From Candidatus Thorarchaeota archaeon (GTDB taxonomy: Archaea > Asgardarchaeota > Thorarchaeia > Thorarchaeales > Thorarchaeaceae), in NCBI GenBank assembly GCA_038893995.1, contig JAWAQK010000018.1:10823-40322 (forward strand): a stretch of 29,500 nt of DNA, given 5' to 3'. The position numbers and the translations under genes are program-made. Below are positions 1,374 through 19,172 of the stretch, one piece after another (the stretch's first letter is position 1; every line of letters begins with the position of its first letter). The notes beneath the pieces are model-generated. The model was given only the letters and a program-made list of their open reading frames with translations. It did no database searches and was not told where the DNA came from.

Positions 1374-4300
1374 TTATCCCCTGGCCGTACCAATGTCGAT
1401 CCGCGGATACAGGTCTGTGAATATTCTCATGGCGTTCTCATACTTTTCCAGTGTTATTTCGTGCTTGGAGAAGCGGGCTTCCTGGTACGCCTCCAGGAAT
1501 TCGCTGACCATTGTCTGATCAATTGGGACCGATTTCATGACTCTCTCCATGTAGGCCCGCGGCGTCTCATGCCTTGCTCGCTCGGAACCCGTCTTTGCGC
1601 CGCACATTTGCTCGAATGTCTTGTAGGCCAGTATTATTGCCGCCGCATACTTTCCTGCGTCTGCAAGCTTCTTGATGTTCCTGAGCTTTCCGTAGGTGTC
1701 AACACCCGACAATGTCACGCGCCTACGACGGGGGTATATCCGTTTGAAGAAGTAAATCAGCGCAACTACCCCTGCGCCGAATCCAAATGCTCCAACAGCC
1801 ATCATTATGTCGAATGGGGACTGCGTATTACCACCTGCCTCTACTCTGACGATATAGCTACCAATGAGGATATCTCCTAGCTGCGTACGCAGTGAAACAT
1901 TAAACGAATATATCCCAATCTCAGCTCTATCAGCCAGCGTGGTACTGAATCTACCGTCCTGATCTGTCGTCGCTACAAACGTCCTATCTATACCCTCGAT
2001 CTCGACGCTCACAACTCTAGTCGCTATCGGCAACCCCACATCGTCAGTCAGCCTGCCCGAGATGGCGAGTGGTGCTCCTGCAACAATCCGGTCACTCAAT
2101 GAACTTAGAACAATGTTTCGGAAGACATGGACGGTCGTGGAGAATGTGAGGTTGCTGGGCCCCAGGTATTCGCCTCCCCCATACTCAAAGGTCAAGATAC
2201 ACTGTCCACTCCGTGGCCAGTCGTTGGGTATTGCTATCTGAAAATACTGCACCCCGTTGCCCGCAAACATGATACTGGCAATGGCAGTTGCATTCAGAAG
2301 TACGATGATTTGTCCCGGTCTATAGACACCATCTTCATCACTGAGTAGTATGGATACCGTGAATGTTTCCTGTGGCATTACGCTAATGCTGTCCCCCGAC
2401 TCACCCATCAATTGTGTCCTCAGGAATAGATCCACGGTCTTCCACGTGGTAGGGCTGCCGAGCGTGTAGAATGAACTCATGATGGCGACTCTTACTTCAT
2501 ATTGTCCACCGGCCAGAGAATGGGGGACCGTGATTTCGACATGGAATGTGCCATCAGGTCCTGTCTGAATTGTGCCTGATACCTGAGTGCCGTTGAGTGT
2601 GATCGTCAGCGGTACGTCCCCCACCCCTCCATTTGAGTTTGAGATCTGACCAACAACAAGCACGTGGTACCCCCTGTAGACTATGTCTGGCGTCACGGAA
2701 TTGACTACTATGCTAATCATATCGAATACACTGAGAGCGTTGGAGGGAGAGTTGATATTCTGATAGTAACTCTGTGGTGGTACCACACGAACACGAAACG
2801 TTAGCTCTCCGACTGGCTCACTCCACTGGATCTGATACACAAGGACGAACCGCCCATACTCATCTGTAACGTTCATCGCCCGTATTGTGTTGCGCCAGAG
2901 GAGCACGACTTGGTAACCCCCGAGTTCAGTCCCGTTGCTCAGTGTCACCGTGCCCCGAATGATCACAGTTTGCCCTCTATAGACCGGCGACTCATAGGTG
3001 ATCGTCCCCCAACTGACGATGAGGTAACTGACATTCACTTCCCTCTGAGGGCTCTCGACACTACTTACCATTGGGTCTGTACTGGTATAGTTGCATTTGA
3101 ATCGGTATATACCAGGGGCCTGAGTGGGCCAACTGAGCATGTATACAAACCGATAGTATCCCAACTGATCCGTGGTATCGTTGCCAATGAGGATCCATGA
3201 GGTCCCACTCAAGAGATAGATCCTGATGAGGACGTTCTGCATCGGTGCTGAGGTGCTGGCGTGAGTCAGGAACCCCTCTATCGTGATTGACTGGTCTATG
3301 TTCACATTAGTCGGAACAGTCATACTCAGAACTAGCTCATAGAGTGCGAGCTCGATCACACGTTCGGTCGAGGTAGCATTGTCCCACAGCGGATTCACAG
3401 TGTTTCCTAAGAACACCGCCCATAGTTGTACGACTGACTGACTGTCCTTATCTGGGGAGCAGTTGTAGAAGTAGACGAAACTTCCAGTTGGGCCAGTCGG
3501 ACCTGGATAGAGCGCCTGGATCGTACCATTGCTCCAGCGCCAATATATGACTACACTCTGTCCCTCGATAGGTGTGCTGTTGTGCTCAAATCTCAACTGT
3601 CCAGCTATGCGGACGGTCTCGTTCAGATGATACAGGGTGAGATCAGTATCGATTGTGATGGACAGTCGATATAGTCTAAGTTCCAGTCTCGTTTGGTTCG
3701 AAACGTCTTGATAGAGCAACGAGTTGGACACAAACGACACTACAACCAGGACGTTGCCCGGGCTATCTGCAAGTGAGAGATTGTAGTGGAATACGAAGGA
3801 TCCGTCGTTGCTGGTCCTCACCCGGAATGTCTGGGTCCCCATCCGGTCCGACCACTGGAGTGTCAGGTTGGTCGGCGGCAGGGCTGTCCCATTGTGTACA
3901 AGAAACAAGCCTCCGGATATGGTGACTATCTCGTCCAAGAAATAGCTATTCCGATCGGAGGTCAGGGGGAGTCTTGTGGGCCAGCTCACGACCGTGATGC
4001 TGATATTCTCCGATCTCGCCCCCTCGTAGAGCGGATCGGTCGAGATGTATTCGCTCCAGCAGAGCAGAGTGCCAACGAAATCCGCTGGCACTGCATATGA
4101 GAAGTTGTAGTATCCCCCTTGACCTGTGACAATTGTTCCAGAGTTCATCAGAACAGGGCCGCTGTATATGTATACATTCACACTCTTTCCCACTAATCCT
4201 GATGAGTTACGTCGATCTACCAAGTTTCCGTATAGATTGAAGCGCTCTGTGGGATGTGCAATGTTAGAAGGGGCGCTCGAAAATATGGATATTCGAGCTC

Positions 4301-6533
4301 CCATAGACTCTAGTCTGATGCCGATGGGTGTGGTAGTGCTGTTGGTTATGAGTGGTAATGTACTCGTCCATACTGCATAGACATAGTATACGCCATAGGT
4401 CATGTTGTCTGGAATCGGATACTCGAAAGTGAAGGATCCATCAAGCTCAGTCTGTGGGGTCCCAATCAGCACTTCCCCGAGGACAATGCCCACGGTCTGT
4501 CCAGCAAGACTCGTTCCATTCAGAAGCGTGAGGTTGCCCTCGAAACGGACTGTGTCGCCCCGGAACACAAGTGTTGCGTTGACTGTCATTCGGAGGTCTG
4601 ATCTCCCCCATATCTCTACAGTAGAGTCATCTGAGCGAGCTGGTAGAAGAAGCGGCACGCCTTCTGGAGTATAGTCACCCGTGTAATTCGAGTATACCGT
4701 GTGAATGCCGAGCCTGACTCTGGGATCAGTGGGAATTACCTGGAGCAGGTACTCATATCTCCCGTCTGACCCTATCATCACACTGGCTATCTCGATACCA
4801 TCCCAGATTATCTGAATGTACCTGTTATAGGTCGGCTGGTAGGGCTGACCGTTTACCGTGAACACTCCATGCAGGCGGAGTGTGTCAAACCAATAGGCGG
4901 TGTAGTTGTCCAGCCCCTGCTTCAAGTCTACACTGACGGTATCACTCACCATGAAGCCAGAGCTGCTGGTCGGGATGCGTAAAGGTTCTGGCACAGCAAC
5001 TACGTAGATCTGTGTTGAATTGGACACCTGCACCCCTCCGATCTGACACATTGCAGAGATCTGATGCAGCCCCACGCTCGATCCAGCTGGAAACACGTAT
5101 GTGACTGTTGCGACCCCCGACGAGTTGGTATAGGCCTGCCCCAATACCACTTGGTCCGTTACATCGAAGAATCTGATTGCCAGCGACGTTCCAGTGGGAT
5201 TGCCTCCTACGGTCAGCCTCGCGTAGAAGTTCATTGAGTGACCTATCTGTACCCATCCCTGGGGTCGGTTGTGGAATACACTCAGTTCTGCCGTACCCAG
5301 ATCAACATTCTCGGGAGGTTCGTCAAGTTGGATGGGCAGTGGAAGTACCTGGATCCACTCTCCGTCCAAGTATGGATTGTTCAGAGGGATATAGACCTCG
5401 ACCCAGAAGATCATATGTCGCACACGAACAGACCTGTACCCTCCTTCTGGATCACCGACAGCATAACCCATCGTAATCCTTGCAGGGATCTCGAGGTATC
5501 TCATGAATACACAGTAGGCTGTTGCAAAGTCCATTGGAAGCCCTCCACCCCTAGCAAGGAACCAGTCCGTGAGCTCCTGACCCGCTGGAGGTCTCTCGTA
5601 GAGATCGGGAGGCATGATCATGAGTTCGAAGTTACTTCGGAAGTATAGACTGACTGCGATGGCGGTCTCATACGCATTGCCAATATTCTCAAACTGTGAT
5701 ATGGTGTTTCTAACGTTCTGGGTCAGGACCACATCGTTCAGTGTTGGTCGGCCGTACATGGACGTGATGCTCGGTGGAGCATCGATGCCGTCCATTGCTG
5801 CGGACGCTATGTACTCGAGGTCCTGTCTTCGGTATGTTACCTCGTAGCTGACAAGCACATTCTCCCCAGTCCTGGCCTGCAACAGGGGTCTGAACAGCAG
5901 TGTGCCATAATCATCTGTCACCAGTTCGTAGTCTATCAGTCTGCTCTCAGCGTCCACCTGGTACTGTCCGTTCACTATTCGACCTGTTCTGAAGGAGTCC
6001 TCTATGACGAGGATCTCGGGGAACAGGGACGGAAGTTCTACAGTTCCGACGTACGGACCTGCAGTGATGTTCAATAGCACGATGTAGATGGGGTTCCCGA
6101 GCTGTTGCGCCTCTTCCCGAGTTACTAGTTCGGTATGTGAGAGATCTCTCTCCGATTCTGGTCTACTCTTGGCCCAAGTACTTCCATCATACGAGTCATA
6201 TGCGGTCGTTCGCCAGAGCTGTGGTGGATCCTCCGGTGCTACATAGAATATGACATTGTCAAGGTTCTGAAGAAGGTTCGCAGGAGGAGTCCAATCGAGG
6301 GGGAGATGGGTGTAGTTTGTTCCCTCAAACCAGCTGGATCTTCCCCCGGCCCAGGGGATGTCGTACGGCCACGGGCCGATGCTCTGATATTCCTCGTGAG
6401 GTATCTGAGACCGAGGTTGCCCAAACTGGACCAAGACGAAGGAGTATGTCGACCAGATTATTATCGCAAGTACCACAAATGAACCAATCAGTGTTCCGAT
6501 TCTTGTCCCGGAACGGCGTGCAACCTCAGCCAA
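1374..6533 (-). CDS. Large surface protein (1719 aa): N-terminal TM, transglutaminase-like domain (apparently inactive), tandem Ig-like modules, TM, C-terminal DUF4129-like domain
   Basis: TTG start with GAGGTGG RBS. TgpA-like motifs WRTTAYDSYDGSTW, FATAYCVFMRYLEIPARITMGY and WVEVY. Repeated T-x-x-x-G-x-F/Y motifs. Hydrophobic IMMAVGAFGFGAGVVALIYFF followed by KRIYPRRRR. Tail has HETPRAY..YQEARFSKHEIT. Confidence 0.85.
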   Translation of the reverse strand: MAEVARRSGTRIGTLIGSFVVLAIIIWSTYSFVLVQFGQPRSQIPHEEYQSIGPWPYDIPWAGGRSSWFEGTNYTHLPLDWTPPANLLQNLDNVIFYVAPEDPPQLWRTTAYDSYDGSTWAKSRPESERDLSHTELVTREEAQQLGNPIYIVLLNITAGPYVGTVELPSLFPEILVIEDSFRTGRIVNGQYQVDAESRLIDYELVTDDYGTLLFRPLLQARTGENVLVSYEVTYRRQDLEYIASAAMDGIDAPPSITSMYGRPTLNDVVLTQNVRNTISQFENIGNAYETAIAVSLYFRSNFELMIMPPDLYERPPAGQELTDWFLARGGGLPMDFATAYCVFMRYLEIPARITMGYAVGDPEGGYRSVRVRHMIFWVEVYIPLNNPYLDGEWIQVLPLPIQLDEPPENVDLGTAELSVFHNRPQGWVQIGHSMNFYARLTVGGNPTGTSLAIRFFDVTDQVVLGQAYTNSSGVATVTYVFPAGSSVGLHQISAMCQIGGVQVSNSTQIYVVAVPEPLRIPTSSSGFMVSDTVSVDLKQGLDNYTAYWFDTLRLHGVFTVNGQPYQPTYNRYIQIIWDGIEIASVMIGSDGRYEYLLQVIPTDPRVRLGIHTVYSNYTGDYTPEGVPLLLPARSDDSTVEIWGRSDLRMTVNATLVFRGDTVRFEGNLTLLNGTSLAGQTVGIVLGEVLIGTPQTELDGSFTFEYPIPDNMTYGVYYVYAVWTSTLPLITNSTTTPIGIRLESMGARISIFSSAPSNIAHPTERFNLYGNLVDRRNSSGLVGKSVNVYIYSGPVLMNSGTIVTGQGGYYNFSYAVPADFVGTLLCWSEYISTDPLYEGARSENISITVVSWPTRLPLTSDRNSYFLDEIVTISGGLFLVHNGTALPPTNLTLQWSDRMGTQTFRVRTSNDGSFVFHYNLSLADSPGNVLVVVSFVSNSLLYQDVSNQTRLELRLYRLSITIDTDLTLYHLNETVRIAGQLRFEHNSTPIEGQSVVIYWRWSNGTIQALYPGPTGPTGSFVYFYNCSPDKDSQSVVQLWAVFLGNTVNPLWDNATSTERVIELALYELVLSMTVPTNVNIDQSITIEGFLTHASTSAPMQNVLIRIYLLSGTSWILIGNDTTDQLGYYRFVYMLSWPTQAPGIYRFKCNYTSTDPMVSSVESPQREVNVSYLIVSWGTITYESPVYRGQTVIIRGTVTLSNGTELGGYQVVLLWRNTIRAMNVTDEYGRFVLVYQIQWSEPVGELTFRVRVVPPQSYYQNINSPSNALSVFDMISIVVNSVTPDIVYRGYHVLVVGQISNSNGGVGDVPLTITLNGTQVSGTIQTGPDGTFHVEITVPHSLAGGQYEVRVAIMSSFYTLGSPTTWKTVDLFLRTQLMGESGDSISVMPQETFTVSILLSDEDGVYRPGQIIVLLNATAIASIMFAGNGVQYFQIAIPNDWPRSGQCILTFEYGGGEYLGPSNLTFSTTVHVFRNIVLSSLSDRIVAGAPLAISGRLTDDVGLPIATRVVSVEIEGIDRTFVATTDQDGRFSTTLADRAEIGIYSFNVSLRTQLGDILIGSYIVRVEAGGNTQSPFDIMMAVGAFGFGAGVVALIYFFKRIYPRRRRVTLSGVDTYGKLRNIKKLADAGKYAAAIILAYKTFEQMCGAKTGSERARHETPRAYMERVMKSVPIDQTMVSEFLEAYQEARFSKHEITLEKYENAMRIFTDLYPRIDIGTARG

Positions 6534-9007: not shown

Positions 9008-9549
9008 TGCAGCTCGAGAATCCCGATCCCTCCCTGTGGGCCGACATTGTACGTCGTATTGATGGAAACTTCGGTGAGGGCGTCACTGCTGGACTTGTGG
9101 GTGAGAACCTACCCGTGGTACTACGAACAGACGGTCGTCTTTCCGTATACTTGATTCCTCCGTCTTGGCCCAGTCTGCTCGGCTCAGTCGATGGTCCCTT
9201 CACGGTGACTTCTCTCGGCGTTCATCTCTGTGACTGGGACGGTACCACACTACGGCTCGGACTGCCCATGATTGAACATCTCTCGAGGTTGACCGAGTGT
9301 AAGATCACGGTGTCCAGCAGGGGAGCACAGGCTTTCACATATGGCCGGAGTCTGATCAAGGAGTCCATTGTCAGTCTGAAGGGCGCCTCCAGAAGGGGTC
9401 AACTCGTGGTAGTCCTGGATGAGAAGAATGTCTGCCTCGGCCTGGCTGCACTATCGGTAGACCCTTCCAGGTTTGACCGACTGGGTCGTAATGATCTCGT
9501 CGCGAGGAATGTGATGGACATAGGTTGGTATATTCGACGTTCCAGTTAG
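9004..9549 (+). CDS. Nip7-like PUA-domain ribosome biogenesis protein
   Basis: AQAFTYGRSL..VVVLDEKNVCLGLA..DIGWYIRR C-terminal PUA signature. Start overlaps the methyltransferase stop (GTG 9004 or ATG 9007). Confidence 0.8.
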   Translation: MMQLENPDPSLWADIVRRIDGNFGEGVTAGLVGENLPVVLRTDGRLSVYLIPPSWPSLLGSVDGPFTVTSLGVHLCDWDGTTLRLGLPMIEHLSRLTECKITVSSRGAQAFTYGRSLIKESIVSLKGASRRGQLVVVLDEKNVCLGLAALSVDPSRFDRLGRNDLVARNVMDIGWYIRRSS

Positions 9550-10286
9550 ACGAACATATCGCTAGAGCGGTCTTCAGACTCAATAGACCTCCGCATCTTC
9601 TCCAGCCGCTCTATCTCCCTGCTCTCCTCGATGAGCTGATCAACGTCTGCATTCAGTCCGTAAACTCGGTTCAGATTCTTGAGCATTACCGCTGCAGAGC
9701 CCGGGTCCGGACGACCCCTCGTCGCGTAAGTGAGTAGCCCGATTGCAGGTTGTTCCCTCATCTCAAGCTCGGCAAGAAGGAGTGCCAGTGGACCGGCGAC
9801 AAAGAGTCCCTCCTCAAGTATTGGTATGTCCCACTTGTTCATGTATTGTCTGTACGTAGTTGTGGGAACGCAACGCATCTCTGACTCATCCTCCTTGAAG
9901 CTCGAATCAAGTCCTCCGAGCAGCACAGCCTCGGAGAAATTGTTCGCGACTATCCAGTCTGCAAGCCGGTCGATGAACGCCCATTGTTCGGACTGATGTG
10001 GTTGGAACCGGGGGACGAAGAAGACAAACTTCTCAAACGAGTATATCTCGAATGGTAGCACGAGTTTCTCGTTCTCCACCGAAACGAATAGAGGTAGCAT
10101 GTCGCTCTTGATGAATCCGACCCTCTCTGCGTTGAGTACGCGTGTCAGATGGGCGGTGCTCAGAAATCCCACCTCTCCAAGTCCATGAAAGCCGCATATG
10201 AAGATGGATCCAGGAACGACTCGGAACCCATCACGAAGTATTATCTTGAAACAAGACTCGCGTGTTGCAACAGACGCCATTTCCAT
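9546..10286 (-). CDS. PAC2 family proteasome assembly chaperone
   Basis: GFHGLGEVGFLS, LPFEIY, LLGGLD, AGPLALLL and PDPGSAA motifs. Likely start is ATG 10286 or 10280 rather than 10367. Confidence 0.85.
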   Translation of the reverse strand: MEMASVATRESCFKIILRDGFRVVPGSIFICGFHGLGEVGFLSTAHLTRVLNAERVGFIKSDMLPLFVSVENEKLVLPFEIYSFEKFVFFVPRFQPHQSEQWAFIDRLADWIVANNFSEAVLLGGLDSSFKEDESEMRCVPTTTYRQYMNKWDIPILEEGLFVAGPLALLLAELEMREQPAIGLLTYATRGRPDPGSAAVMLKNLNRVYGLNADVDQLIEESREIERLEKMRRSIESEDRSSDMFV

Positions 10287-10428
10287 TCCTCGCGTTCTTT
10301 TACTACTCGAACGACCATCAGATGAAGCGGGCTGTGCCTGGCCTTTTGTACTTGTGTATGCACCCACATAATAGTCACTGATGCCCCGCGTCCCTGTCCC
10401 TCAGGCCACACTGTAACAAAACCGAAGA

Positions 10429-10483: not shown

Positions 10484-11209
10484 ATGGTCGACGAAATTGA
10501 TGCCATCAGGCGTGAACTCGATGAGGTACGAAGGCTTCGTGCCGAGCTCGAGCGAGAACTTGAACAACTGAGAAGAGAGAGGCCATATCCGCCGGGACCA
10601 GATCTACACAGACCCCCTCCGCACAGCGGGCCCGGTCTCCCTCGTAGACGTCATGTTCCATGTGGCTCCCCTCCTGTCGACCTGAAACCACTCACGGACG
10701 CGCTGGAGGACATGATGGATGGAATCAGTGAGCAGGTCCGACATAGCCTTAGAGACCTGCCTGGGGTCAATTGGAGGATCTATGCTCCGCGCAGACTACA
10801 CAGACGCCGTGAAATCGAGAGTATCACTCCCGAGCGCATCGCACGCTTCATCAGTCCTCTGGGTAGCGAAGAACGGCTCAAGATCATGGACTTTCTGAAG
10901 GATGGACCCAAGACATTCAATCAGATCGAGGAGTTTACTGGACGGACTGGCAGCTCTCTGACACATCATCTCAACCCTCTCCTGGACGCTGGATATGTAG
11001 TGAAGGGCGAGGTCCGTGGGACATACCATCTGACAGTCGAGGGCCGACTCGCATACAGGTTGGCACAGTGGCTGACAAGTCGCCTTGAGTCGGAAACTGA
11101 TAATGACTCTTCGAACGGAACTGTTTCTATCTCGTTCGAGGATGAAACGGACGAAGGTCGTTCCAGCACCAGCGAAGGCGGTGATGGCGGGGGGATGGTC
11201 TCAGAATGA
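10484..11209 (+). CDS. ArsR-type winged-helix regulator with N-terminal coiled coil
   Basis: LGSEERLKIMDFLKDGPKTFNQI..GSSLTHHLNPLLDAGYV..RGTYHLTVEG. The N-terminus is heptad-like (IRRELDEVRRLRAELERELEQL). Confidence 0.85.
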   Translation: MVDEIDAIRRELDEVRRLRAELERELEQLRRERPYPPGPDLHRPPPHSGPGLPRRRHVPCGSPPVDLKPLTDALEDMMDGISEQVRHSLRDLPGVNWRIYAPRRLHRRREIESITPERIARFISPLGSEERLKIMDFLKDGPKTFNQIEEFTGRTGSSLTHHLNPLLDAGYVVKGEVRGTYHLTVEGRLAYRLAQWLTSRLESETDNDSSNGTVSISFEDETDEGRSSTSEGGDGGGMVSE

Positions 11210-11835
11210 ACGGGATCACGATTGGTACCAGACCGTTCACCGTCACGTCATCTATCAGGATAATATCCACTGACCACGCGCTGGTCGAGCTGTTGCCAGG
11301 CTGTACTTGGCTACCGCTAAAGAAGGACAATCAGAATGTGGGCATTGCCTTCAAGGGTCCCTTCAGGCTCATGGTAGACACCATCGTCGACACAGCTCGT
11401 GGAGCTATAGGCAGATCTCTTTCCTACAATCTGGACCAGACCTCGGTATACCTGGGTCGGGCGGACCCTTCTGCTGTCTCTCGTCCGTCAACAGATGATG
11501 AGACGGAGTCAGCAGGCGAAGGTAACTCTGAAACATTTCACGAGAGGATGAGGAATTCTGTCGAGGAGATCCTGTCCAGGTCAGTGAAGGAGCTGAAGGT
11601 GCTAGAGGGACGAGATATCCTCCTAGGCGAGGGAAAGGGGCGAAAGCAGATCGTCCTCATATGCAGGGGTTCCGACATGCTCTTCTCATACGAAGGAACC
11701 GCGTATATTCACGCGGGAGGAACCTCTGCGTTGGTCGATGGCAGCGTGGTCACCCTGAATCGTCATGGTGGCGGTTACGCATTGTCCCACATTGACCGTC
11801 ATGGCATCCTGAACCTCCTGTTCAAGCTACCATAG
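11206..11835 (+). CDS. Hypothetical protein, translationally coupled to the regulator
   Basis: 209-aa ORF with ATGA overlap at 11206-11209. No family recognised. Confidence 0.7.
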   Translation: MNGITIGTRPFTVTSSIRIISTDHALVELLPGCTWLPLKKDNQNVGIAFKGPFRLMVDTIVDTARGAIGRSLSYNLDQTSVYLGRADPSAVSRPSTDDETESAGEGNSETFHERMRNSVEEILSRSVKELKVLEGRDILLGEGKGRKQIVLICRGSDMLFSYEGTAYIHAGGTSALVDGSVVTLNRHGGGYALSHIDRHGILNLLFKLP

Positions 11836-11927
11836 ATCCCGGGTGTCGACCTTCTCTGCTGAGTTCTGGATATGGGTGGGCGAATGGTTCCAAGTTCTGA
11901 TCACTGCAGGGACCCTGACCTCGCCCC

Positions 11928-12347
11928 TCATTCCTTGTGACAGCTTCTGGCAAGGGCCACACCTAGTGCCCTACACTCACCAAGTGATATCTCATCTGGA
12001 TAATCCTTTGCCTTCACAGGCTTACTGATGAGTACTGCACCCCGTTTCGTCAACTCCTCAGCTATTATGTCTGGTGCCTCCCCACTCCATCCGTAGGAGC
12101 CGAAGCTTGCTGCTGGCATACCCTCCATGCTTCCCAACTCTGACAAGATCTCGCGTATCTTTGGTAGCGGTCGCTTTATCCTCGTAGAGCTCCCGAATGC
12201 CACGGCGCATGCTCCCTCAAGAGAGGTGAACTCATCGGCAGGTACGAGATCACAAGCGATACCCTGAGACCTGACTCCGTCGCATATGGCGATGGCCATG
12301 GCCCTTGTTCGGCCGAGAGTGCTCTCAAAGACTACGAGTACTCTCAT
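11928..12347 (-). CDS. Flavodoxin-like protein
   Basis: FMN phosphate loop FESTLGRTRAMA, plus FGSST and SFGSYGWSGEA as in FprA-type flavodoxin domains. Confidence 0.9.
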   Translation of the reverse strand: MRVLVVFESTLGRTRAMAIAICDGVRSQGIACDLVPADEFTSLEGACAVAFGSSTRIKRPLPKIREILSELGSMEGMPAASFGSYGWSGEAPDIIAEELTKRGAVLISKPVKAKDYPDEISLGECRALGVALARSCHKE

Positions 12348-12900
12348 GAGCCCATCTGGGTGATAGTGGAGTGAAAAGAATTGTCGTATGACCCGCGGGA
12401 TATGTTCGAATCAGAAGTTGACAAGATTCGCAACGATCAGGATGCAGAATCATTGATGTGTCCAAGACCGTTAGTATCCCACACACGACATTACTCTGAC
12501 CTTCCGCGGCAAAGTAACAAGATGTGACCTCCAGTGGCGACTCACAGATGTGGCTTGGCATTATATGTTCTTGACCGCTCCATAGTCATGGTGAGAATGC
12601 CGATGGACCGCGGTCATTGGATCAGGGTTCAAGAGCGAGGAATCTGCATCAGGTTGCATTCGCAGGAAGACAACTCCCGCTGGCAAACGATGACATTGGA
12701 GCGCTCTGATTGAGTCCGGTATGCCAGAGTTTCGACACTCAGGTGATGTCTCGTGAGACCTCATTCTCGCGAATAGTGTTCGAAACCGTTTTGGCCATCC
12801 TCTGAACACGTACGAGTTCTCTTCCTGAGGTGGCCCTCATGATGGCCTGAATCCTCCATACACAGGTCAGGCCTCTGACTGTCATAGAGGATATGTCACC

Positions 12901-13929
12901 TCAGAACTCCCTTACATACCTCATCTTGTCTTGGTATGCGTTTGGCTCATATGTGGAAGGCCATCGTGGCTTGTTGTCTAGAACATCCTCTATCTCAGCA
13001 AGTGTGGTGTTTGAGAGATGGACATCTGATGCTAGAACATTATGGGCCACCTGCTCAGGTTTCGTCGCGCCAATTATGGCCGCGGATATCTCAGGTCTTC
13101 TCAATATCCATGCAAGGGCGAGTTGTCCAAGAGTGATGTTGAGCGAAGAGGCAATGTCTACGAGTCTCCTTAACTTTGAGAGGAGGGCGTCATCAAGTTG
13201 TCGTCTGATTGACTCAGACCTTGCCCCACGACTCTGTTGTGGCACGCCGTCCAGGTACTTTCCAGTGAGTATTCCCTGAGCCAGCGGGCTCCAGACGGTC
13301 AGACCCATTCCGTGTGCGTGCACAACTGGCATTATCTCGAGTTCTATGTGACGGAAGAGCATGTTGTATTGGGGCTGTTCGACGATGGGACGTTGAGCCC
13401 CCATCTCTTTGGCAACTGCATTGACCCTCTCGATCTGTGCTGCTGACCATACAGACGTTCCCCAGTAGAGTACCTTTCCGGCATGTATGAGGTCGTCTAT
13501 GACCGAGACAGTTTCTTCAATGGGCGTAATTGGATCGAATCGGTGCATGAAGTAGATGTCAATGTAGTCCAGACCCAGACGGCGGAGCGTCCCATCTATT
13601 GCACGAGTAATGTTCTTTCTGCTCAGTCCCCATGAATTGACATCGTCACCCATCGGCCAGAATACCTTGCTTGAGATGACAAGTCTATGTCGATCCACTG
13701 TCTGGTCTCGGAGAAATGCACCTATCACCTCTTCAGCCCGACCGTGTGCGTAGATCTCAGCGGTATCGATGAAGTTGATGCCATTCTCAATGGCGGTCTC
13801 GAGGCATCGTCTAGCCGCGTCGTCATCAACAGTAGACCCGTACGTCAGCCACGAGCCAATGGCGATCTCACTGACCTTTAGGCCACTACGTCCAACTTGT
13901 CTGTATTTCATCTCAAGCTCATCTTTCAT
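12901..13929 (-). CDS. Aldo/keto reductase (Kv-beta/YghZ-like group)
   Basis: GRSGLKVSEIAIGSW, FIDTAEIY, ISSK, YFMHR and WSPLAQGILTGKY. The D-Y-K-H tetrad is present. Confidence 0.95.
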   Translation of the reverse strand: MKDELEMKYRQVGRSGLKVSEIAIGSWLTYGSTVDDDAARRCLETAIENGINFIDTAEIYAHGRAEEVIGAFLRDQTVDRHRLVISSKVFWPMGDDVNSWGLSRKNITRAIDGTLRRLGLDYIDIYFMHRFDPITPIEETVSVIDDLIHAGKVLYWGTSVWSAAQIERVNAVAKEMGAQRPIVEQPQYNMLFRHIELEIMPVVHAHGMGLTVWSPLAQGILTGKYLDGVPQQSRGARSESIRRQLDDALLSKLRRLVDIASSLNITLGQLALAWILRRPEISAAIIGATKPEQVAHNVLASDVHLSNTTLAEIEDVLDNKPRWPSTYEPNAYQDKMRYVREF

Positions 13930-14061
13930 TCATCATATTTCAGTCTGTGGACGGAGGCATAATTTCCAATGAGATTGCCAGTTGAACATGACCTTCCGCA
14001 AAGACATAATAGTATATGTAAGAACAATAGCAAAACGACGATAGAAAGGGAAGGCTCTCGA

Positions 14062-16263
14062 TTGAGTACCCTGATGGAGCTTGAAGTCGAGCAGGTGTCT
14101 GTACTACTGCTAGAGATACTCCGGAGACAGGGTATGCATGATCTGACGATGTTCCAGCGTGCTGCAGTGAAGGAGGGCATCCTCAAGAACACGAATCTGA
14201 CGCTTGTTACACAGGATTACGATGAGGCATACCAGATATCAGAAGTTGCACTACTCAATCAGGTCGCGTCAGACCTCCGGAGTCGAGTCCTCATCCTCTG
14301 TCCTAACCCACATGTTGCTGAGATGCGCATCAGGTCCCTTGGCTACAAGTGTGCTCGACTTGGCGTGGATGTTTCATCAATTGTCCGCAAAAGCGTTTCG
14401 AGTTTCCCCATGCCTGCTAGTCGTGTGACCGTTGCGACTTTCCGTTCGATGGAGGCTGCTGCCAGACTACATCCCAAGATTCTCGACGGTCTCTCAAGAG
14501 TATACATAGAGCGCATTGACCTGGTAGGCCAGACCGATGTTGGACCCGCACTTGAACGACTCATGACACTTCTGCTCACATCCTCAAGTTCCACACAGTT
14601 AATCTCGGTCACGCCGAGAGTGGCCAATCTGGACGAGCTGGCTGGGTGGTTGAGATCTCGAATCGTGGTGGACCCCAGACCAGAGGTCAGAAGGATCTTC
14701 AGTGTCAAGGCCTATGAACAGATGGACCGTGCAGTGGCAGAGCTTGCCGACTTCGTTTGCCGCAGAGGGGGCCAGAGCCTGATACTGTGTCCAAACATGT
14801 CTTCCTCCGAGTCCCTAGCCGCCCATCTCTCAGGAAGTAACAGCTCAGTCGCTCTCTCTTCACTCACGGCGGATCAGAGGAGCACGCTGAGAGCACTCGC
14901 AGAAAAGGTGCAGAAGTCATTCCCGCAATGTTCCGTCACCCACAGGCTCGCAGATTGTATCCGCAAGGGTGTTGCGTTTATTCATGAAGGGCTTCCGAAG
15001 TATCAGAGGCAGGTCCTCTCAGGCGCTTGGAATGCAGGTGTCATGCCGGTGTTGGTTGTTCCGTCAAGGTTCGTCCTGGCAAGTGAGTTGAGAGCGACGG
15101 CTGTTTTCGTGATGGGTGTGTATTCACAGGATATCTCATCTGAAATCTCTGGTCGGGGTGACATGTACATGCTCTCTGAATGGCAGCTCGCTGAGATGCT
15201 GCAGCTTGCGGGACGGCCCGGTCGCGACACCGAGGCCTACGGAACGGTAATAGTTGATAGTGACTCAGAGAAAGCCCGGGTAGTTGAGAGGTTCTTCGAA
15301 ACTGACTCCTCAGGTAGTCTCAGACCAGTTCCAAGCGAGATCGATAGCCTTCTTGATGAGCCTGACCATGTTCAGGATCTGATTCTTGGACAAGTGTGTG
15401 GTAGGTCTGAGTACGGGAGTGATCCGCTGGCCATGCTTGACAATACCTTCTGGGCATTCAGAATGAGGACTGTGAGGAGCAGGATGTCCAGTGACAAGAG
15501 TCCAGAGGATGAGGAAGCATGGGCTCTGATTCATCAGCGTACCACACGGTCCACGATCGATCGGGCAAGACGAGTGTCAGACAAGAGTGTGCGTCTCGTT
15601 TCGGTAAGTCCGACAAAGATAGAGGGTCTGGTACATAGTGGGTCCCGTGAACTCTGGCACTATGCGGCTCTCAGGACCTCTGACGGAGCTTCTTGCTCAT
15701 GCGAGTCCTGGAAGTATCAGGGGGTCAGACGACATAGGCTCTGCAAGCATTTGGCCAAGCTAGCAATGTACTCACTCTCACAGGCTGAGAGCAGGCCCTA
15801 TGCAGCATCTATCATCAGGCGATCGCTTCAGGGCCTTGGTGCACTTGAAAGCCTTGAGCAGCAGGGTTTCGTTAACAGAGACGGGTCTGCAATTCTCTGT
15901 ACTACCCTCGGAAGGCGCACTGCAATGATGGGGGTGCCGCTTCGAGAAGCGAAGATCATGATAGATATGACCTCGGGCCGCCGAGGTGACTTGGTAGAAG
16001 CGATCAGTCAGGTTGCTATAGCCAACACGGGTCTGCCCGCATCCCTTGTCAAACAGGTCGTCAAATCGGTGCGTCAGAAGAATGATGAAAGTCTGATATC
16101 ATGCGATGATCTACCCGGGATAGTGGAGAACATATTGGAAGAGCTGCATTATGTAGCTGGTCTGTTGGTCCGGATTGTGGGAGATGAGCAATATGAAGAT
16201 GGTCTGACTCCCAGAGACATGGAAGACGCAATTGGTCGACTATTGGCATCGCTCAGGAAATGA
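14062..16263 (+). CDS. Hel308/Ski2-like SF2 helicase derivative with degenerate ATPase motifs and a SWIM zinc finger
   Basis: Collinear with Hel308 (ANLDELAGWL, LADCIRKGVAFIHEGL, AGRPGRD, TTLGR), but Walker A and DExH are absent. SWIM motif CSCESWKYQGVRRHRLCKH. Start probably TTG 14062 or ATG 14074 (ORF track gives 13969). Confidence 0.8.
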   Translation: MSTLMELEVEQVSVLLLEILRRQGMHDLTMFQRAAVKEGILKNTNLTLVTQDYDEAYQISEVALLNQVASDLRSRVLILCPNPHVAEMRIRSLGYKCARLGVDVSSIVRKSVSSFPMPASRVTVATFRSMEAAARLHPKILDGLSRVYIERIDLVGQTDVGPALERLMTLLLTSSSSTQLISVTPRVANLDELAGWLRSRIVVDPRPEVRRIFSVKAYEQMDRAVAELADFVCRRGGQSLILCPNMSSSESLAAHLSGSNSSVALSSLTADQRSTLRALAEKVQKSFPQCSVTHRLADCIRKGVAFIHEGLPKYQRQVLSGAWNAGVMPVLVVPSRFVLASELRATAVFVMGVYSQDISSEISGRGDMYMLSEWQLAEMLQLAGRPGRDTEAYGTVIVDSDSEKARVVERFFETDSSGSLRPVPSEIDSLLDEPDHVQDLILGQVCGRSEYGSDPLAMLDNTFWAFRMRTVRSRMSSDKSPEDEEAWALIHQRTTRSTIDRARRVSDKSVRLVSVSPTKIEGLVHSGSRELWHYAALRTSDGASCSCESWKYQGVRRHRLCKHLAKLAMYSLSQAESRPYAASIIRRSLQGLGALESLEQQGFVNRDGSAILCTTLGRRTAMMGVPLREAKIMIDMTSGRRGDLVEAISQVAIANTGLPASLVKQVVKSVRQKNDESLISCDDLPGIVENILEELHYVAGLLVRIVGDEQYEDGLTPRDMEDAIGRLLASLRK

Positions 16264-16350
16264 TGTTCCTAACGAACCTTTTTAGGGAGTCCTACTCGTG
16301 CTTTCCCAGCCTGGAGCCTGTATGTCTTGCTCTGGTTGTGGTGATCCACA

Positions 16351-17496
16351 ATGAAGTTGTTTGAACACGAAGCCAAAGATATCTTTCGATCATTTGGTAT
16401 ACCCTTGCCGCAGGGCGGGCTTGCTACATCCCCTCAGCAGGCGAGAGACTGGGCAATGACAATCGGCAGACCTGTGGTTGTGAAGGCACAGGTACTTGCT
16501 GGAAAGAGAGGTAAGGCAGGAGGGGTCAAATTCGCAAACACTCCCGAAGAAGCCGCACAAGCAGCAGAGCTGATTCTGGGGATGCGAATCAGTGACCTAC
16601 CTGTAAACTCAGTCCTCGTGGAAGAGAAGCTGGACATAATGCAGGAGATCTATGCGGGGATCACAGTCGATAGAAACGAACGCAAGTACGTCGTCATTGG
16701 GAGTGCGTCTGGCGGTATGTCAATTGAAGAACTAGCCGCAGAGCATCCTGAGAGGATCATCAAGCGTCACATTGACCCCTCCAGCGGTCTGAATGGATAT
16801 GAGGCCCGCGAGATGGCCATAGAGATGGGCTTCAAGGGGCGGCAGATATCTGCACTGGCAGACTTCTTCACAAGATTGTGGTCGGTTGTTGAGTCCTACG
16901 ACGCCGAACTCACCGAGATCAATCCATTGATTCTAACTAAGGATGGTCGCTTTGTGGCCGCTGATGCCCGTCTGAACATCGATGACAACTCACTATTTCG
17001 CCACAAGGACATACTCCAGAAGATCAGTAGGCCACCGATGGAGCAGAACGAACGTGAGCGTCTCGCATCGGAACATGGCATGGCTTACGTCGAACTCGAT
17101 GGTGATATCGCATGTATCTGCAATGGCGCGGGTCTCACGATGGCAACTCTGGATGCAGTTGCGTTCTATGGCGGCAGGGCAAGTACGTTTCTAGATCTTG
17201 GAGGCGGGTCTGATGCAGAACGAGTACAGAAGGGAATCGAGATCGCACTGAAGTATCCGCGTGTAAGGGCAATACTTGTCAATGTCATGGGTGGGATCAC
17301 ACGTTGTGACGAGGTCGCAAAGGGCATCGTGGCTGCCCGAGAGAAGCTCAACATCAGGGTACCCATGGTGATACGGATGGTTGGAACAAATGAGGTTGAG
17401 GGTCAGAAGATTCTGGAGGACGCAGGCATTGCTTTTCTGAAGACAATGGAGGACGCAGCAAGTAGAGTTGTGAAGCTTGTGAAGGAGGTGTCTTGA
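16351..17496 (+). CDS. sucC: Succinyl-CoA synthetase beta subunit
   Basis: MKLFEHEAK, VVKAQVLAGKRGKAGGV, EINPL, NGAGLTMATLD and GGITRCDEVA. Confidence 0.97.
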   Translation: MKLFEHEAKDIFRSFGIPLPQGGLATSPQQARDWAMTIGRPVVVKAQVLAGKRGKAGGVKFANTPEEAAQAAELILGMRISDLPVNSVLVEEKLDIMQEIYAGITVDRNERKYVVIGSASGGMSIEELAAEHPERIIKRHIDPSSGLNGYEAREMAIEMGFKGRQISALADFFTRLWSVVESYDAELTEINPLILTKDGRFVAADARLNIDDNSLFRHKDILQKISRPPMEQNERERLASEHGMAYVELDGDIACICNGAGLTMATLDAVAFYGGRASTFLDLGGGSDAERVQKGIEIALKYPRVRAILVNVMGGITRCDEVAKGIVAAREKLNIRVPMVIRMVGTNEVEGQKILEDAGIAFLKTMEDAASRVVKLVKEVS

Positions 17497-18366
17497 ATGG
17501 CGGTTCTGTTGAACGAGAACACGAGAGCAATTGTCCAGAACATAACTGGAACTCAGGGTACTTTTCATTCTGCATCTATGCTGAAGTACGGGACTAAGCT
17601 GGTGGCGGGAGTGACACCTGGCAGAGGCGGCGAACTAGTCAACGGACTGCCCGTGTACGATTCTGTCAGGGCTGCCAAGAAGGCCCACAATGCAAATGCA
17701 TCCATCATCTTCGTACCCGCACCGTTTGCAATGGATGCTGCACTGGAGGCAATAGCCTCAGACCTGAATCCAATTGTGATCATTACCGAGCACATTCCTG
17801 TCCGTGATGAGATCCGGATAATACATGCTGCTAGACAGAGAGGCATCACGATCATCGGACCAAACACACCGGGGATAATTACACCAGGTTCGAAACAGAA
17901 GCTCGGAATCATGCCGGGTCATGTCTTCTCCGACGGGAAGGTGGGCCTGATGTCTAGGAGCGGAACCCTGACCTATGAGATCGCTGCAGGGCTCACGGAT
18001 GCAGGCCTTGGAGTCACTACCGCCATCGGTCTCGGAGGTGACCCTTGTGTTGGTCTGACTCCAGTGGAGGCGATTAAGCTCTTCCAGAAGGACCGAGAAA
18101 CAGAAGCATTAGTCATTGTAGGCGAGATCGGCGGCGACGCAGAGGAGAGAGCAGCAGCATACATCAAGGAGAATGTGGACATTCCTGTGGTGGCGTTCAT
18201 AGCGGGCCGCACTGCTCCTGAGGGAAAGCGAATGGGTCATGCCGGAGCAATAATCAGTGGCAGCACGGGTACGGCAGCTGCCAAGATAAGGGCATTCCAA
18301 GATGCCGGTGTTGCTGTGGCTGAACGCCCAAGTGATGTTGCCAAGTTGCTCAAGGAGCGTCTCTAG
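17497..18366 (+). CDS. sucD: Succinyl-CoA synthetase alpha subunit
   Basis: VAGVTPGRGG, IIGPNTPG, SRSGTLTYE, GEIGG and KRMGHAGA with the phospho-His. Directly abuts sucC. Confidence 0.97.
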   Translation: MAVLLNENTRAIVQNITGTQGTFHSASMLKYGTKLVAGVTPGRGGELVNGLPVYDSVRAAKKAHNANASIIFVPAPFAMDAALEAIASDLNPIVIITEHIPVRDEIRIIHAARQRGITIIGPNTPGIITPGSKQKLGIMPGHVFSDGKVGLMSRSGTLTYEIAAGLTDAGLGVTTAIGLGGDPCVGLTPVEAIKLFQKDRETEALVIVGEIGGDAEERAAAYIKENVDIPVVAFIAGRTAPEGKRMGHAGAIISGSTGTAAAKIRAFQDAGVAVAERPSDVAKLLKERL

Positions 18367-18730: not shown

Positions 18731-18872
18731 GGGCGGGTGATCTAGCGGTTAACGTGGCGTCAGTACAATGCTGATGTCCGGGCCGAGTGATGCCGCCTTC
18801 ACACGGCGGATGTCAGGGGTTCGAATGGGCCCGGGATTTCCCCGGGTACAGAATGTCCCCTCCTGCCCACCA
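18731..18872 (+). tRNA. tRNA-Val(CAC) with two non-canonical introns (18752-18787 and 18826-18855) and encoded CCA
   Basis: Exons 18731-18751, 18788-18825 and 18856-18872 join to GGGCGGG TG ATCT AGCGGTTA TGAT G CCGCC TTCACAC GGCGG ATGTC AGGGG TTCGAAT CCCCT CCTGCCC A CCA (76 nt). Acceptor, anticodon and T stems pair fully and the D stem has 3 bp. Anticodon CAC at 18800-18802. Confidence 0.93.
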
Positions 18873-18956
18873 CTGTATGATTCGTCTGCCATGCTCATGA
18901 TCGCTTTAGATCGTCCCCGTCTTGAGATCACACTACATAACCGAAGGGTCAGACAA

Positions 18957-19172
18957 ATGCCAAGACAGATCACTGATGTCGAGAAGTTCATCAAGATGAG
19001 TGAGAGCGCAAAGGAATGTCGCGTCAAGAGAGGCAGCAATGATGTCAAGCTCAAATTGAGGACGGAAAAGTACCTCTACACAATTGTGCTTGCCCCTCAA
19101 GAGGCCGAGTCTGTGATCCAGCGGGTTAAGTGCAGCATAGTAGAGGCAAGGAAGTCTCCGGAAACGAGCTAG
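18957..19172 (+). CDS. rpl38e: 50S ribosomal protein L38e
   Basis: MPRQITDVEKFI..CRVKR..VKLKLRTEKYLYTIV matches the eL38 pattern. The real start is ATG 18957; the ORF-track extension runs through the tRNA. Confidence 0.9.
   Translation: MPRQITDVEKFIKMSESAKECRVKRGSNDVKLKLRTEKYLYTIVLAPQEAESVIQRVKCSIVEARKSPETS

Follow-up and report, generated by a model that had tools for sequence, protein, structure and literature searches.

What does a helicase fold do in the cell once the residues that made it a motor have been replaced? This question is raised by a gene found at positions 14062..16263 on the forward strand of a 29,500-nucleotide (nt) stretch of DNA, referred to below as the window, which corresponds to C18:10823-40322 of genome G000 (2.33 Mb, 91% complete) of an Asgard archaeon of the class Thorarchaeia; unless a contig or locus is named, all coordinates are positions in this window. 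Helicases of the Hel308/HELQ/POLQ type control recombination outcomes, and no closer relatives of eukaryotes are known than the Asgard archaea. The gene product, predicted to be an ATPase-dead paralog of Hel308 with a SWIM module, is a stand-alone pseudo-helicase of 733 amino acids (aa) that keeps the RecA1-RecA2-winged helix-ratchet ring. Its homologs come from organisms named almost exclusively “Candidatus Thorarchaeota.”

The homology of this protein to Hel308 is far beyond chance. Searches with phmmer match it to P. furiosus Hjm (2zj2) with an E value of 1.5e-14 and to A. fulgidus Hel308 (2p6r) with an E value of 3.5e-14, and the NCBIfam Hel308 models (NF040935, PRK02362, and PRK00254) recognize it with E values from 1e-18 to 5e-27. 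The respective scores, 52 to 94 bits against cut-offs of 887 to 1216, are 13 to 20 times below those cut-offs (66.7 bits against the whole-protein cut-off of 1200, and 94.4 against 887 for the best model), whereas the canonical Hel308 of the same genome scores 595.7. A Pfam scan finds no DEAD or Helicase_C domain in the pseudo-helicase and returns only a borderline SWIM match. The AlphaFold model, with a predicted local distance difference test (pLDDT) score of 76 and a predicted template modeling (pTM) score of 0.72, superposes over domains 1 to 4 on the Hel308/Hjm structures 9b15, 2p6r, and 2zj8 (Z scores of 33.8 to 34.1; root mean square deviation [rmsd] of 3.4 to 3.7 over 550 to 568 residues), and also on the POLQ helicase (Z of 31 to 33), the Brr2 cassettes (Z of 26 to 30), and Mtr4/Ski2 (Z of 26 to 29). 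Hel308/Hjm (2p6r, 2zj2, and 2va8; NF040935) and the helicase domains of POLQ/HELQ share with it the same four-domain ring, at Z scores of 30 to 34 over ~550 residues and with 17 to 20% identity. Unlike Hel308/Hjm, however, the pseudo-helicase lacks the P-loop, DExH, SAT, motif V, and the helix-hairpin-helix (HhH) domain 5, and it carries an insert of ~110 aa with the SWIM module in the winged-helix domain. Alignment, Pfam, and structure all indicate that the chain stops at the ratchet domain, with no domain 5; the Pfam HHH_5 domain is found in 3 of 23 relatives, this protein not being among them.

Erosion of the ATPase motifs had been proposed in the initial annotation, which was made from the sequence alone and described a Hel308-derived protein with an intact frame of more than 700 codons, a preserved Q motif, and no C-terminal HhH domain. 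All of this is borne out, by the searches and model just described and by a stop-free open reading frame (ORF) of 764 codons; each of the motif strings that it quoted occurs once, in the claimed frame and order. The interval that it assigned, 14062-15240, has the right start and too early an end, as it covers only the two RecA-like domains of a gene that extends to 16263. The motifs, all on the forward strand, were paired by HMMER alignments to the structures 2zj2 and 2p6r and by a MAFFT alignment that included active relatives and the canonical Hel308 of the same genome. The Q motif LTMFQ (14143-14157) is kept, with L59, T60, F62, and Q63 invariant in the family. At the former Walker A motif, or P-loop, PTSSGKT is replaced by TQDYDEA (QDYDEAY at 14212-14232), an acidic segment without GK[ST] in which D83, E86, and A87 are invariant and which forms the start of a helix in the model (strand at residues 77-80, helix at 84-101). 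Former motif Ia now reads CPNPH (14299..14313). Motif II has changed from DEIH to ERID (14509-14520; family consensus, [DE]R[LI]D, with R182 and D184 invariant) and motif III from SAT to TPR (14611-14619; xPP/TPR in the family, with P216 invariant). Motif IVa is partly kept, with IHEGL (14980-14994) in place of HHAGL; it reads F-I-H-E-G-L here, the second His and the Ala of F/YHHAGL being altered and F337, H339, and G341 being invariant. According to the alignments to Hel308, motif V has turned from TPTLAAGVN into PSRFVLASE (RFVLASE at 15067-15087), and motif VI from QMAGRAGR into EMLQLAGR (15193-15216), with loss of the first Arg and of the Gln, an invariant G415, and a last Arg that is mostly kept. 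In the alignment, GQ in motif IV and AGR in motif VI are likewise preserved. Domain 4 contains a ratchet-helix equivalent, PGIVEN..EELHYV (16114..16155), in which G717, E720, N721, and E724 are invariant and the aromatic Y728 stands where active relatives carry Trp.

These losses are shared by the whole family. DExH is missing from 72 of the 72 full-length orthologs, which have D-[YF]-x-E-A-[YH] at the Walker A column. Among the orthologs there are six stray GK[ST] tripeptides, and the two that were checked (in P0016 and P0030) are located upstream of the P-loop column by several residues. The Lys and Thr of Walker A, the Asp-Glu pair of Walker B, the SAT motif, and the first arginine finger are gone in all orthologs, and from these sequences we infer that canonical ATP binding or hydrolysis is not possible.

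In spite of these replacements, the gene evolves under strong purifying selection and belongs to the single-copy core of the class. In a class sample of 87 genomes, including one from another family of the order, it is single copy and stop-free in 83 genomes, representing 16 of 17 genera and 23 of the 24 high-quality genomes; the class search did not find it in the single genome of the other family. Across the class the orthologs are only 39 to 49% identical to the copy in the window, which marks the source genome as a deep branch within its family. Both the pseudo-helicase of G000 (at most 49% identity) and its canonical Hel308 (51 to 52%) are distant from the copies in the other searched genera. 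For pairs with unsaturated synonymous divergence (dS of 0.2 to 0.5), pairwise Nei-Gojobori (NG86) estimates of the ratio of nonsynonymous to synonymous divergence (dN/dS) range from 0.06 to 0.15; by domain, they are 0.03 to 0.15 for RecA1, 0.04 to 0.14 for RecA2, 0 to 0.11 for SWIM, and 0.09 to 0.30 for the ratchet. In the same three genome pairs, dN is 0.27 to 0.33 for the pseudo-helicase versus 0.33 to 0.38 for canonical Hel308. The former motif segments have column identities of 0.69 to 0.92 against a protein mean of 0.68, the exception being the former motif Ic (0.64). The highest value among the measured motif segments, 0.92, belongs to former motif Ia (residues 110-118), followed by former motifs II (0.88) and I (0.82), with the SWIM core at 0.81; the zinc finger of the SWIM module and the presumably refilled cleft show the strongest constraint in the protein. 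The conservation of the former motif segments above the mean indicates that the lost catalytic residues have been replaced by new, fixed ones. The initial annotation had argued that the protein is retained and not decaying, and had named beforehand what would speak against this, namely close orthologs with GKT/DExH and neutral drift; neither is seen, in the 72 orthologs or in the dN/dS values, and retention is upheld.

The second distinctive feature of the protein is the insert of ~110 aa in the winged-helix domain (residues 513-622; 15505..15834, forward strand), which holds the SWIM module and has no counterpart in the canonical Hel308 of this genome, where the alignment shows a gap. Its zinc-finger signature, CxC-x13-CxH (15694..15750, forward strand), consists of C576, C578, C592, and H594, none of which varies among 26 aligned sequences or among the 72 full-length orthologs. 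The Pfam SWIM domain (PF04434) scores 19.3 bits against a gathering cut-off of 19.6 (E value of 8e-4), a miss by 0.3 bit, and matches 6 of 23 family members at E values of 0.01 or lower, the best being 2e-6. A separate model of the C-terminal part (residues 440-764 of the ORF; pLDDT of 88), when compared with structure representatives, finds its best matches in the winged-helix and ratchet domains of Hel308 (Z of 9.5 to 9.7). The insert, modeled as four strands followed by helices, has its own best match in the SWIM region of ZSWIM8 (PDB entry 9rwz), with a middling Z score of 7.8 and an rmsd of 3.2 over 94 residues; despite that score, this model-based match appears to agree with the CxC-x13-CxH signature in the sequence. 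A signature of the CxC-xn-CxH form is common to ZSWIM8, SWS1/ZSWIM7, and Shu2, the last two of which are SWIM-domain partners of Rad51 paralogs. Invariant K, R, W, Y, and H residues abound on the surface of the SWIM module. That a Ski2-like helicase should carry an inserted module in its winged-helix domain has a precedent in the accessory arch (KOW) of Mtr4/Ski2 (PMC10946056), although the inserted folds differ and Mtr4 and Ski2 are active RNA helicases, unlike the protein described here.

Strong selection and near-universal retention without motor residues point to a job that needs no motor. We consider it fairly likely that the protein acts passively on DNA intermediates, as a clamp, an adaptor, or an aid to annealing, and makes contact mainly through the SWIM surface. 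As such, it would be an ATP-independent binding module and not a translocase. D83, E86, R182, and D184 would refill the former ATP cleft, probably locking the two RecA domains in one state, while nucleic acid or a partner protein would bind to the closed ring, to the basic and aromatic surface of the SWIM module, or to both. The bound nucleic acid would most likely be single-stranded or branched DNA, as for Hel308, and the role would lie in DNA repair or recombination. In Hel308, strand annealing and the control of unwinding are governed by motif IVa (PMC10484726); a clamp or annealing role is favored because this motif is partly kept in the pseudo-helicase and the auto-inhibitory HhH domain is gone.

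Several observations weigh against this interpretation. Motifs Ia, Ib, IV, and V contact nucleic acid in superfamily 2 (SF2) helicases; all of them have been rewritten here, so that binding of nucleic acid via the old channel is not assured. The Q motif, the usual site of adenine recognition, is invariant yet not accounted for by a passive clamp. The conserved neighbors of the gene (PAC2, sucCD, L40e, and L38e) are housekeeping genes whose linkage is seen within one genome family, and they offer no functional hint; the relatives outside Thorarchaeia have other neighbors, with none in common.

These relatives were collected by a profile search of 1.84 billion cluster representatives. The thorarchaeal pseudo-helicases form one tight cluster, beyond which there are full-length relatives with the SWIM signature at the same place. 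Most of the latter keep PSxSGKT, DEIH, SAT, HHAGL, TTTLxAGIN, and QxLGRAGRP, and some keep the HhH domain. All 17 clusters that were looked up and carry a source name are from Asgard archaea, the names covering Loki-, Heimdall-, Hod-, Hermod-, Odin-, Jord-, Baldr-, and Ranarchaeota or -archaeia, as well as Asgardarchaeia and Promethearchaeota. SWIM-Hel308 proteins with intact GKT, DEIH, SAT, HHAGL, and GRAGR are found in Loki-, Heimdall-, Hermod-, Jord-, and Baldr- lineages and in Asgardarchaeia. Active forms such as P0097, P0098 (Jordarchaeum), P0102 (Baldrarchaeia), P0113 (Lokiarchaeota), and P0251 (Thorarchaeia) have the same architecture and the same insert position and, unlike the pseudo-helicase, keep all the ATPase motifs. 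There are also intermediates, P0090 from a Hod, P0094 from a Ran, and P0095 and P0101 from Odin lineages, with an intact GK[ST], eroded motifs III, V, and VI, and a motif II that reads DETY, DDAQ, EECD, or DEFQ. In the Hod-like family f25 (genomes G335 and G336), such an eroded form is the only SWIM copy found.

In phylogenetic trees built with FastTree and with IQ-TREE (LG+C20 with posterior mean site frequencies [PMSF], on 36 to 37 rows), the SWIM proteins form one clade with support of 99 to 100 by both methods and a Shimodaira-Hasegawa-like approximate likelihood ratio test (SH-aLRT) value of 100. The pseudo-helicase is a fully eroded member of a SWIM-Hel308 clade whose other members are mostly catalytically intact. 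The thorarchaeal pseudo-helicases group with the eroded Hod, Ran, and Odin forms (support of 99 to 100; SH-aLRT of 99), on a stem of 1.6 to 2.5 substitutions per site as opposed to 0.26 to 0.77 for the crown branches. Long-branch attraction among the eroded sequences is possible, and the approximately unbiased (AU) test does not reject a single clade of pseudo-helicases and active thorarchaeal copies (p of 0.214); the trees are compatible with an ancient as well as a Thorarchaeia-specific duplication, and with a single as well as a repeated erosion.

An intact thorarchaeal SWIM-Hel308 is encoded at G074:C7:27820-29988 (L036:421-2592) and has GKT, DEIQ, SAT, HHAGL, and GRAGR. A class search with this protein finds full-length active SWIM-Hel308 (E value of <1e-190) in ~55 of the 87 genomes and a 39%-identical match in the single genome from the other family, along with shorter matches over the RecA region in most genomes (E values of ~1e-70 to 1e-84, in frames of ~740 to 800 aa), whose sequences are consistent with canonical Hel308, a gene checked directly in four of the five g2 genomes. 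In-frame stops were reported in some of the active SWIM-Hel308 matches; the copy that was inspected (G043/L037) is open over 736 aa, and the stop in that match is most likely the end of the gene itself, read through by the aligner. In the tree, the active thorarchaeal copy clusters with the other active SWIM proteins, apart from the eroded ones, so that the pseudo-helicase represents an extra paralog in Thorarchaeia, and most genomes of the class encode three relatives, namely canonical Hel308, active SWIM-Hel308, and the pseudo-helicase. The source genome encodes a canonical Hel308 (C2:27273-29384), and neither full-length nor C-terminal queries found an active SWIM-Hel308 in it. The same combination, a retained pseudo-helicase and no active SWIM-Hel308 found, occurs in seven further genomes that are at least 90% complete. 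This retention in genomes where searches found no active SWIM copy implies that any partner of the pseudo-helicase would be canonical Hel308 or something else.

The question of a partner bears on the alternative that the protein is a protein-only regulator acting in trans on canonical Hel308 or on active SWIM-Hel308, in the manner of Brr2 but as a separate polypeptide. We regard this as unlikely. Potential targets exist, in the form of the canonical Hel308 of the source genome, the fitting matches in most genomes, and the full-length active SWIM-Hel308 of about 55 of them; however, the pseudo-helicase gene never adjoins either helicase gene, and at least eight genomes of ≥90% completeness, the source genome included, retain it although the searches found no active SWIM copy in them. 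Human Brr2 chains align with it mostly via their inactive cassette (residues ~1313-2057; Z of 28 to 30), but the gap to the active cassette (Z of 26.8) is small. The initial annotation had likewise drawn an analogy to this inactive cassette, and the analogy holds loosely. The C-terminal cassette of Brr2 (SNRNP200) is, like the thorarchaeal protein, a conserved Ski2-like unit that has lost hydrolysis; it stands in tandem with an active cassette and has a Sec63 unit (ratchet, HhH, and FN3), whereas the pseudo-helicase is a stand-alone protein of 733 aa with no HhH, FN3, or P-loop. According to its description (PMC8220420), the inactive Brr2 cassette, fused to the active one, also retains its nucleotide pocket, which the pseudo-helicase, as judged from its sequence and model, appears to have lost. 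A wider form of the idea, by analogy, is pairing in trans with an active motor of the Hel308 family or, via the SWIM module, with RadA or RadA paralogs in the way of SWS1/Shu2; it is quite doubtful. If it were true, the Asgard archaea would keep an unfused stage of the active-plus-inactive cassettes of Brr2/ASCC3, or a forerunner of the pairing of SWIM proteins with recombinase paralogs.

The conserved cleft itself invites another reading, in which the old ATP site has been re-tooled as a ligand-binding or catalytic site built from C111, N113, H115, D83, E86, R182, D184, H339, and E340. Such a site would explain the conservation of CPNPH and [DE]RLD, as few positions of the protein are conserved as highly as those of the replaced motifs, a pattern that simple relaxation after loss of function is not expected to yield. 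Nevertheless, these residues match no recognizable catalytic constellation in Pfam or NCBIfam, and a structural lock predicts equally high conservation; we consider a re-tooled site improbable. Persistence of nucleotide binding or hydrolysis by a non-canonical mechanism is highly improbable: the Q-motif residues F62 and Q63 do not vary and G415-R416 are mostly retained, but the catalytic residues listed above are gone in all orthologs and the P-loop position is acidic and starts a helix in the model. Finally, a neutrally decaying relic or pseudogene, for which motif loss and nothing else speaks, is ruled out by the intact frame in 83 of 87 genomes, by a dN/dS of 0.06 to 0.15, by evolution slower than that of canonical Hel308 (lower dN), and by a long stem (2.2 to 2.5 substitutions per site) that is followed by short crown branches.

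With respect to the gene itself, the mechanical ORF spans 13969-16263 (forward strand). The orthologs begin with M/L-STL (MSTL or LSTL), which aligns with TTG 14062, and most of the 20 orthologous genes fetched (loci L012-L031, from four genera) have a Leu-coded, TTG-type start. On the basis of these ortholog N termini, ATG 13969 is rejected as the start in favor of TTG 14062, which, judging from the alignment, is most likely the true one. The in-frame upstream extension (13969..14061, forward strand), which is aligned with orthologs by chance extensions only and has a pLDDT below 50 in the model, is probably untranslated. It contains an A/T-rich TATA-like box (14006..14018, forward strand; read directly from the sequence) ~45 to 55 nt upstream of the TTG, which, by the general pattern of archaeal promoters, is a candidate promoter. 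Oligo-T tracts serve as a termination signal for archaeal RNA polymerase, and a T5 tract, also read directly, is located 16 nt past the stop codon (16279..16283, forward strand); this possible terminator suggests that the gene is not cotranscribed with sucCD (16351-18366). Taken together, the ortholog starts, the TATA-like box, and the T5 tract define the gene as 14062-16263, with its stop codon counted in, and probably with a transcript of its own.

In Thorarchaeia the gene belongs to a conserved block consisting of PAC2, the pseudo-helicase, sucC, sucD, L40e, L38e, beta-CASP, Alba, and TruD. Between PAC2 (9546-10367, reverse strand) and the pseudo-helicase, the window has ~3.6 kb of DNA, with genes at 10484-13929 that are not at that place in three other thorarchaeal genomes; they encode an ArsR-type helix-turn-helix (HTH) protein, a 209-aa protein without a family, a flavodoxin, and an aldo-keto reductase. 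Within the ORF at 18768-19172, the Pfam L38e match is confined to residues 65-114, and L38e is 71 to 76 aa long in other thorarchaeal genomes; by this comparison, the true L38e gene is probably shorter than the ORF. A 1719-aa ORF at 1374-6533 (reverse strand) is syntenic with the gene, at locus L010 of another thorarchaeal genome, for a 2261-aa protein that has transglutaminase-core and DUF4129 domains. ARAGORN found no tRNA gene across the whole window.

Pseudohelicases as such are a known kind of protein. In addition to the Brr2 C-terminal cassette, they include Utp25 (PMC9539457) and Deinococcus radiodurans PriA (PMC4504706), which have degenerate motifs and non-motor roles; by their descriptions, these two, the first of them DEAD-box-like, are set apart from the thorarchaeal protein as members of other helicase families in other organisms, with no SWIM insert. 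Searches of the literature outside subscription-only papers turned up no account of a SWIM-bearing or dead Hel308 from an Asgard archaeon. For the Ski2-like helicases of archaea we found a single systematic survey, published in 2024, which removed sequences without the characteristic motifs (PMC10946056), a filter that would exclude this family. The pseudo-helicase family and its SWIM-bearing relatives thus appear to have gone unremarked so far. In Thorarchaeia, the Hel308 family has diverged into three forms, namely a canonical enzyme, a SWIM enzyme, and a SWIM pseudo-enzyme, and it is the pseudo-enzyme that is kept more universally than the active SWIM copy (83 versus ~55 of the 87 genomes). 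With eroded intermediates in other Asgard classes, this family provides a clean natural example of how a helicase fold can be retained to serve a function other than that of a motor.

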